NCBI GenBank assembly: GCA_964016885.1 | Contig: OZ024740.1 | Coordinates: forward strand, 243,846,001 to 243,910,000 | DNA from: Eledone cirrhosa | Taxonomy: Eukaryota | Direction: 5' to 3' | Length of the DNA: 64,000 nt | Shown here: piece by piece, positions 44,455-44,551 of the stretch | Layout of the letters: each line of letters opens with the position of its first letter | Position numbering within the stretch: position 1 is the stretch's first letter | Program-made: the position numbers and the translations under genes | Notes under the pieces: model-generated | The model's database searches: none | The model's input: the letters and a program-made list of their open reading frames with translations, nothing else | Told to the model about the DNA's origin: nothing

Positions 44455-44551
44455 AGACGTATCTGACGACCTTGCGATTTCAGAGTCAGGTTCGATCATT
44501 ACATCGATCGTATCTCGAGCTGGTCGCCAGAGAAACGATTGTAATATGTCT
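44455..44551 (+). ncRNA. Hammerhead with intact core and a 62-nt multi-hairpin insert at stem II
   Basis: agacgtat CTGACGA [44470-44531] GAAA cgattg TA atatgtct; 8-bp stem I. Confidence 0.75.

Follow-up and report, generated by a model that had tools for sequence, protein, structure and literature searches.

Type I hammerhead motifs with a covarying extension of stem II, very probably carried by Hydra-clade Penelope-like retrotransposons in Eledone cirrhosa

We report here a hammerhead ribozyme motif in which stem II is prolonged by 62 nt, found on the forward strand at positions 44455-44551 of a 64,000-nt stretch of the Eledone cirrhosa genome (the window). It is a real type I hammerhead motif with predicted self-cleavage, and it is very probably part of the 3' end of a Hydra-clade Penelope-like retrotransposon (PLE). 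Covariation across subfamilies supports the folding of the insert into one long irregular hairpin, which carries an internal-loop module, AGAGUC/GAGCUG, that is invariant in its letters. Judged from its sequence, this structural variant of PLE hammerheads is real, has predicted activity and is apparently undescribed. On balance, we favour a joint reading in which a type I PLE hammerhead would cleave as a dimer while the module in stem II would take the place of loop 2 as a brace.

The window copy has an intact core, an 8-bp stem I and 62 nt between CUGACGA and GAAA, each where an earlier note on this DNA had placed it. Stem I pairs 44455-44462 with 44544-44551 and covaries across subfamilies. 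CUGACGA (44463-44469) corresponds to the core CUGANGA, and 44532-44543 comprise GAAA (from 44532), a self-complementary stem III (ACGAUUGU) and GUA (44541-44543), with cleavage predicted after 44543. Within the insert (44470-44531), the 5' arm of the proximal stem II helix (44471-44478) pairs with 44523-44530 with one mismatch. The two sides of the internal-loop module, AGAGUC (44482-44487) and GAGCUG (44517-44522), flank a segment (44488-44515) that forms an RGG/YCY helix and, past a 2x2 loop, a tip hairpin (CGAUC/GAUCG) whose variable loop has 4-8 nt. Just past stem I, the position of a recurrent AAUAAA (44552-44557) reads AAUACA in this copy, and a conserved CAUYGAGUGCU-like tail motif (44608-44620), present downstream in F1, F2, F6, F7, F8 and F9, precedes the distal 3' end. 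All these features lie on the forward strand. The elements of a type I hammerhead core (CUGANGA, GAAA and NUH) are thus present, as are three helices with stem I open, with covariation support.

A search of 44300-44660 against Rfam gave no match at E<=10, and over the whole window Rfam gave a single short, sub-threshold hammerhead; the earlier claim that length-limited searches would miss the motif is supported for Rfam. In single-sequence folding, the lowest-energy fold predicted for the window copy is not the hammerhead fold, and among nine subfamily representatives a core-open fold is predicted to cost 0.2-9.8 kcal/mol. Two other identities were considered. A hairpin ribozyme, with its loop A and loop B, was rejected: AGUC/NGAG resembles loop A and family F1 carries CCAGAGAAAC, but this stretch is not kept in other subfamilies, nor did Rfam match it. 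A kink-turn in the internal loop was set aside as well, since the letters that it requires are not kept across subfamilies.

Relatives of the motif are abundant in the genome searched, which comprises 3.0 Gb, is microsatellite-rich and includes the 443-Mb contig on which the window lies. A search with the window motif (family F1) returned 2,279 first-look candidates, 40 of which were scored. A tight pattern made of the core and both module motifs had 2,759 exact matches, compared to none for a reversed-pattern control; this is a lower bound because decayed copies and copies with a U4C core fail the exact pattern. A profile search of the collected loci, which did not force either motif, recovered 205 distinct near-full copies in seven clusters of at least 10 plus smaller ones, and AGAGUC and GAGCUG were present in all seven cluster representatives. 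Flank scans and targeted searches had added subfamilies to F1 and F2. When 131 copies were clustered with anchoring, 10 groups had at least two members; a near-duplicate of F7a was dropped, leaving nine real medoids. At least nine subfamilies of this long-stem clan were seen, with inserts of 57-62 nt. The exact clan pattern was absent from the metagenome and viral collections searched, and the clan is so far seen in one genome.

Two clan members in the window belong to a subfamily, F2, with 2,348 candidates in the genome. They occupy 16269-16371 (-), with an inverted 5' duplication at ~16381-16560, and 40796-40898 (-), and they contain the stretches 16281-16365 and 40808-40892 that had been likened to the window motif. 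Homology and the 60-nt inserts were borne out; the sub-hairpins drawn for them were not, and both window cores are damaged (CCGACGA..GAUA and UCGACGA). U4C is fixed in F2; it is known as a natural hammerhead variant of reduced activity (PMC3088659, in part).

Across subfamilies, the insert is best described from its covariation as one hairpin. Its 8-bp proximal helix, which contains about one mismatch, leads into the AGAGUC/GAGCUG module; beyond this come 3 bp of helix and a 2x2 loop, and CGAUC/GAUCG forms the tip. The base after A9 and before G12 is often unpaired. In 24 copies, three near the cluster medoid from each of eight groups, 91.1% of cells were paired and 53 double changes were counted against 15.2 in shuffled alignments, with double changes in four of the seven proximal pairs. 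RNAalifold, unaided, recovers the same nested helices. A larger set of 67 copies, which was fitted to the model and for which the exact pattern supplied 29 of 55 sources, had 85.8% of cells paired and 177 double changes against 68.7 shuffled. Among the nine medoids, 60 of 63 proximal pairs hold compared to 49.7 by permutation, with upstream flanks only 27% identical; as the subfamilies are related and were found by mutual similarity, these tests are inflated and the permutation values are not true probabilities. Covariation among homologs, which had been proposed as the check, is therefore present in both the insert and stem I.

In place of this hairpin the earlier note had drawn two sub-hairpins, which paired 61.9% of cells compared to 60.7% after shuffling, i.e. 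at shuffle level, in an alignment whose one-column offset for F6 and F7 at AGAGUC penalised the first of them. Similarly, the proposed UCGAU/AUCGA hairpin can form in three of nine representatives, compared to all nine for the GRUC/GRUY register. We thus rejected the multi-hairpin reading, whose short hairpins lack covariation. What survives of the structured accessory domain is that it is conserved, covarying and recurrent in many subfamilies, as one irregular hairpin. Within the module, single-sequence folding of most medoids gives AG/CU and UC/GA pairs around an AG/G loop; being invariant, this internal pairing rests on predicted folds and is unproven.

The GAUC arms of the tip vary by wobble only, and the distal loops vary freely. 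The former would be expected if the arms paired between two RNAs and so aided dimerisation, but a plain hairpin allows wobble-only change just as well. A related idea is a switch, in which monomers would be kept inactive by an alternative GAUU/AGUC hairpin and released when a partner or protein refolded them. Lowest-energy folding does predict such a hairpin for the F1, F10 and F12 representatives, and its GAU/GUC core is pairable in seven of nine medoids. However, it excludes the covarying helix, shows no covariation of its own across subfamilies and is broken in F8, where GAU changes to GAA in step with the long helix. Taken jointly, we regard a switch or dimerisation aid as very unlikely.

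Other long inserts reported in the window, of 49, 63 and 71 nt, do exist where the earlier note had placed them, in families whose majority core is intact, but they lack both AGAGUC and GAGCUG. A single domain shared by all long inserts is therefore rejected: there are at least two unrelated architectures, plus others of up to 103 nt. F3 (50220-50299, -; insert 50239-50287) is a repeat family with a 49-nt insert and 1,870 candidates, the top copies being 98% identical at ~520-bp tandem spacing. F4 (20587-20687, +), with an inverted partial copy at 20093-20185, has a 70-71-nt insert and 21 candidates; four small hairpins had been described in it, whereas a family copy folds as one long hairpin. 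F5 (19470-19563, -), with stem III decayed in the window copy, has a 60-63-nt insert and 41 candidates, and its stems I and II vary but stay paired. All three share a second design, without the clan motifs, of a 4-6-bp stem II, a pyrimidine-rich internal loop and a distal hairpin. Complementarity between this loop and the 5' flank of stem I uses letters that differ per family (GAGAA/UUCUC, AGAAAUU/AAUUUCU and AAGAA/UUCUU, respectively), with a mean run of 5.5-5.9 compared to 3.6-4.0 shuffled, in 24/25, 12/22 and 13/25 core-filtered copies; among other long-insert copies such complementarity reached p<0.05 in only four of 24. This pairing is suggestive of hammerhead pseudoknots. Pseudoknotted hammerheads (PMC3088659, in part) likewise make the stem I-stem II contact by base pairing; in F3-F5, the pairing strand would differ in lying within an internal loop closed by a distal hairpin, and the F1 clan differs in that flank tests found no such pairing. 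The F3 copies at ~520-bp spacing and 98% identity occur at loci L106/L107 and L122/L123, where they are probably a young non-autonomous tandem element. Hammerhead motifs with unrelated inserts of 78-103 nt were seen at L186, L187, L224 and L239 (81 nt), and further ones at L184 (92 nt), L187 (93 nt), L186 (95 nt), and L172 and L223 (99-103 nt).

To place these motifs in context, a hammerhead descriptor was run on 599,940 bases sampled without regard to the motif (200 kb beside the window and 400 kb spaced over C1-C6), giving 67 matches compared to 0-4 in five local shuffles. Inserts of 40-103 nt were found in 22 of the 67, some of them inverted pairs at one locus. That so many unrelated long inserts occur in the same genome, together with the freely varying distal loops and the shared ancestry of the clan, is what would be expected if stem II length were nearly free and the insert a tolerated expansion from one ancestor, its pairing kept to spare the core. 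Yet twelve unpaired or partly paired letters are fixed, against 27-34% identity in the flanks and compensatory changes in the proximal helix. We therefore find such an expansion improbable.

The motif lies in a 5'-truncated F1 3'-end copy (44347-44665, +) which, aligned to 29 other genomic copies, ends at the distal of two fixed 3' ends and is followed by (TA)n. Clan copies are 5'-truncated, often with an inverted 5' duplicate, and sit in (TA)n, and the two fixed 3' ends are ~55 and ~130 nt past the predicted cut. Long F1 copies continue through a ~2-kb 3' UTR into a decayed ORF (loci L061 and L095-L097), the element spanning ~5.3 kb in L096. This single ORF, frameshifted in L095-L097, has a reverse transcriptase (RT) followed by a C-terminal endonuclease, with the motifs DKT (SDKTG), YRDD, the CxCX5C linker (CNCRVGEEC) and, about the end of the endonuclease, CKLC (CxxC) and CRH (CxH); the N-terminal RWK position reads RMRWR and RMRWS in two decayed copies. 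The marks of Hydra-clade PLEs described by Craig et al. 2021 (PMC8557442, in part) match this host, and from the motifs plus a by-eye comparison with the supplement alignment of the same source we assign it to that clade. Pfam named no domain in the ORF pieces of F1 or L181, and of 1,826 protein homologs hardly any had a name. F8 connects to the end of a Hydra-type endonuclease lying 1.4 kb upstream; in F2, F6 and F7a, Hydra ORF pieces are nearby in the same sense, and among F3, F4, F5, F9 and F10 they lie near some copies. A non-LTR retrozyme, with short tandem units and no ORF, was rejected for F1, whose copies are dispersed, 5'-truncated and lead into the UTR and ORF.

Several further observations touch on the host. 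At L181 (2450-4429), a 659-aa frame free of stops encodes a Hydra-type RT-endonuclease; an inverted partial copy accompanies it, and the family is young. The tail motif is kept across subfamilies and is a candidate RT-initiation signal; a loosely similar stretch ends Hydra-2_Amil (PMC8557442 supplement, in part). Elsewhere in the window, fragments of Hydra-type endonucleases, a GIY-YIG domain and other PLE-like ORFs occur at 2426-3200 (-), 8415-8999 (-), 26848-27258 (+), 30581-31588 (+) and 45303-45803 (-).

Stem III bears on how such RNAs may cleave. The 8-nt stretch A15.1-U16.1 is self-complementary in all nine medoids, among which it takes four different sequences, and stem III is palindromic in 21 of the 22 long-insert hammerheads of the unselected sample. 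PLE hammerheads with a palindromic stem III are reported to cleave slowly, as dimers (PMC4209133 and PMC6765202, both in part), and by analogy the palindrome would be the signature of dimer-cleaving PLE hammerheads, with dimer cleavage predicted for the clan. Element RNA would be read through tandem or partial-tandem copies, and two stem III palindromes would, as known PLE biology suggests, pair between element RNAs. The resulting dimer would be cut after GUH, at a point ~55 nt before one fixed 3' end and ~130 nt before the other, and the element's protein would probably assist. A PLE hammerhead from Anolis requires protein for cleavage, and RT initiates at two sites (PMC11167929, in part). 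In a search for a genomic trace of cleavage, only one F8 copy among 30 chosen by their tails begins at the cut, with no pile-up; this is consistent with uncut RNA as the main template (PMC11167929, in part) and constitutes no genomic evidence of cleavage.

Natural hammerheads need a contact between stems I and II (PMC3088659, in part). Where stem II is prolonged, the part of loop 2 has to be taken by an internal loop, apparently through pairing in the second design. In the clan, the AGAGUC/GAGCUG module would replace the usual loop 2 and brace stem II against stem I by docking on the A-rich strand (AAUAAA) just past it. Indeed, AWUAAA lies 7-9 nt past the cleavage site in eight of nine representatives, a nearly fixed distance, and the module is conserved in letter beyond pairing alone. 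A polyadenylation signal is another possible reading of AWUAAA, which is found after 16 of 45 short-insert hammerheads too. Flank tests found no base-paired partner for AGAGUC: 5'-flank runs are inconsistent among clan copies and 3'-flank duplexes are not above shuffles in any of nine clusters (best p 0.06), leaving a pseudoknot with either flank without support. As invariant letters give no covariation, docking is beyond what sequence can show. Counted against a brace are that F2 keeps the module despite its weakened U4C core and 3-bp stem I, and the best predicted fold of the window copy. We put the bracing role forward as a tentative lead reading, one that may well be right.

The retention of the module in F2, its invariance in letter and its distances of ~55 and ~130 nt to the two 3' ends would also suit a protein-binding handle. 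The element's RT would recognise the invariant internal loop and the GAUC tip, which could serve to select the element's RNA, to place the two initiation sites close by or to act as chaperone to the ribozyme; the protein dependence and two RT start sites of the Anolis element are in line with this. However, published Hydra elements lack the module in the available part of PMC8557442 (26 rows), and so do the four hammerheads, three of them identical and all with 19-nt inserts, in eight metagenomic Hydra loci; the module is thus dispensable for Hydra RTs in general. Nearer the 3' end, moreover, sits another conserved motif, that of the tail. We consider a handle less likely than the brace, though its main rival. 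Rather less likely still, the module might be a grafted regulatory domain that turns dimer cleavage on or off, whether as a site for the element's telomerase-like RT or as a new tertiary motif, making a protein-controlled allosteric hammerhead. If so, long-armed hammerheads would be a large overlooked class.

The clan can be set against known systems. Like the clan, published Hydra-clade hammerheads (PMC8557442, File S2, in part) are type I, on the sense strand near the 3' end, with an extra nucleotide after A9 and before G12, a short palindromic stem III and a (TA)n-targeting host. Their inserts are at most 26 nt in the 26 rows available, and their elements generally <3 kb, whereas the clan has 57-62-nt inserts, an invariant module, a ~5.3-kb element and a ~2-kb 3' UTR. 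An extended multi-helix stem II with a conserved internal-loop module is not described in the available part of the account of minimal PLE hammerheads (PMC4209133). Long inserts as such have precedent, which qualifies the earlier claim of an undescribed domain: in PLE-X1_sMoe/sTam (plant) and Naiad 'HHR_half_core' cases, ~50 nt lie between the core halves, a long spacing in PLEs like that of the clan. These belong to other clades, and the available part of PMC8557442 calls them deviating or half cores and reports neither covariation nor the module. Eight Naiad families, two of them in cephalopods, are flagged 'HHR_half_core' with 35-50-nt spacing (PMC8557442 File S1, in part); they could be long-stem hammerheads. 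What stood of that claim is the module, which was not found described in the available parts of the literature, including PMC10085705, PMC7229834 and bioRxiv 10.64898/2026.07.22.740005, whose supplements could contain variants.

Non-LTR retrozymes (PMC7229834 and bioRxiv 10.64898/2026.07.22.740005, both in part) carry type I hammerheads in animal repeats, and F3 is likewise tandem, in ~520-bp units. At 51066-53137 of the window, a 310-bp tandem array in two inverted blocks, six of whose units contain a hammerhead with a 14-nt insert, resembles a non-LTR retrozyme; L199 has near-identical hammerheads with this spacing. Further hammerhead motifs, with short or medium inserts, lie at 5489-5751, 7228-7274, 7673-7823, 12151-12200, 12995-13041, 28861-28908 and 41450-41504, several being inverted pairs. 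The window also contains a weak tRNA-like match (43323-43389; E 0.51), perhaps a SINE head, and a 13-bp minisatellite of ~50 copies (34041-34674).

Stem II is where engineers insert aptamers into hammerheads, and natural functional modules in this stem are of design interest. Given that 22 of 67 sampled hammerheads have long inserts, which short-spacer searches skip, counts of ribozymes in invertebrates may be underestimates, as may claims that some PLE clades lack hammerheads; a large class of long-armed hammerheads, if it exists, would possibly include the 'half cores' of Naiads, elements said to lack hammerheads. For the question of why PLEs keep hammerheads, the clan offers a natural series of at least nine subfamilies sharing an invariant accessory module, in which simple mutants could probe the parts played by tertiary contact, dimer formation and help from the RT.
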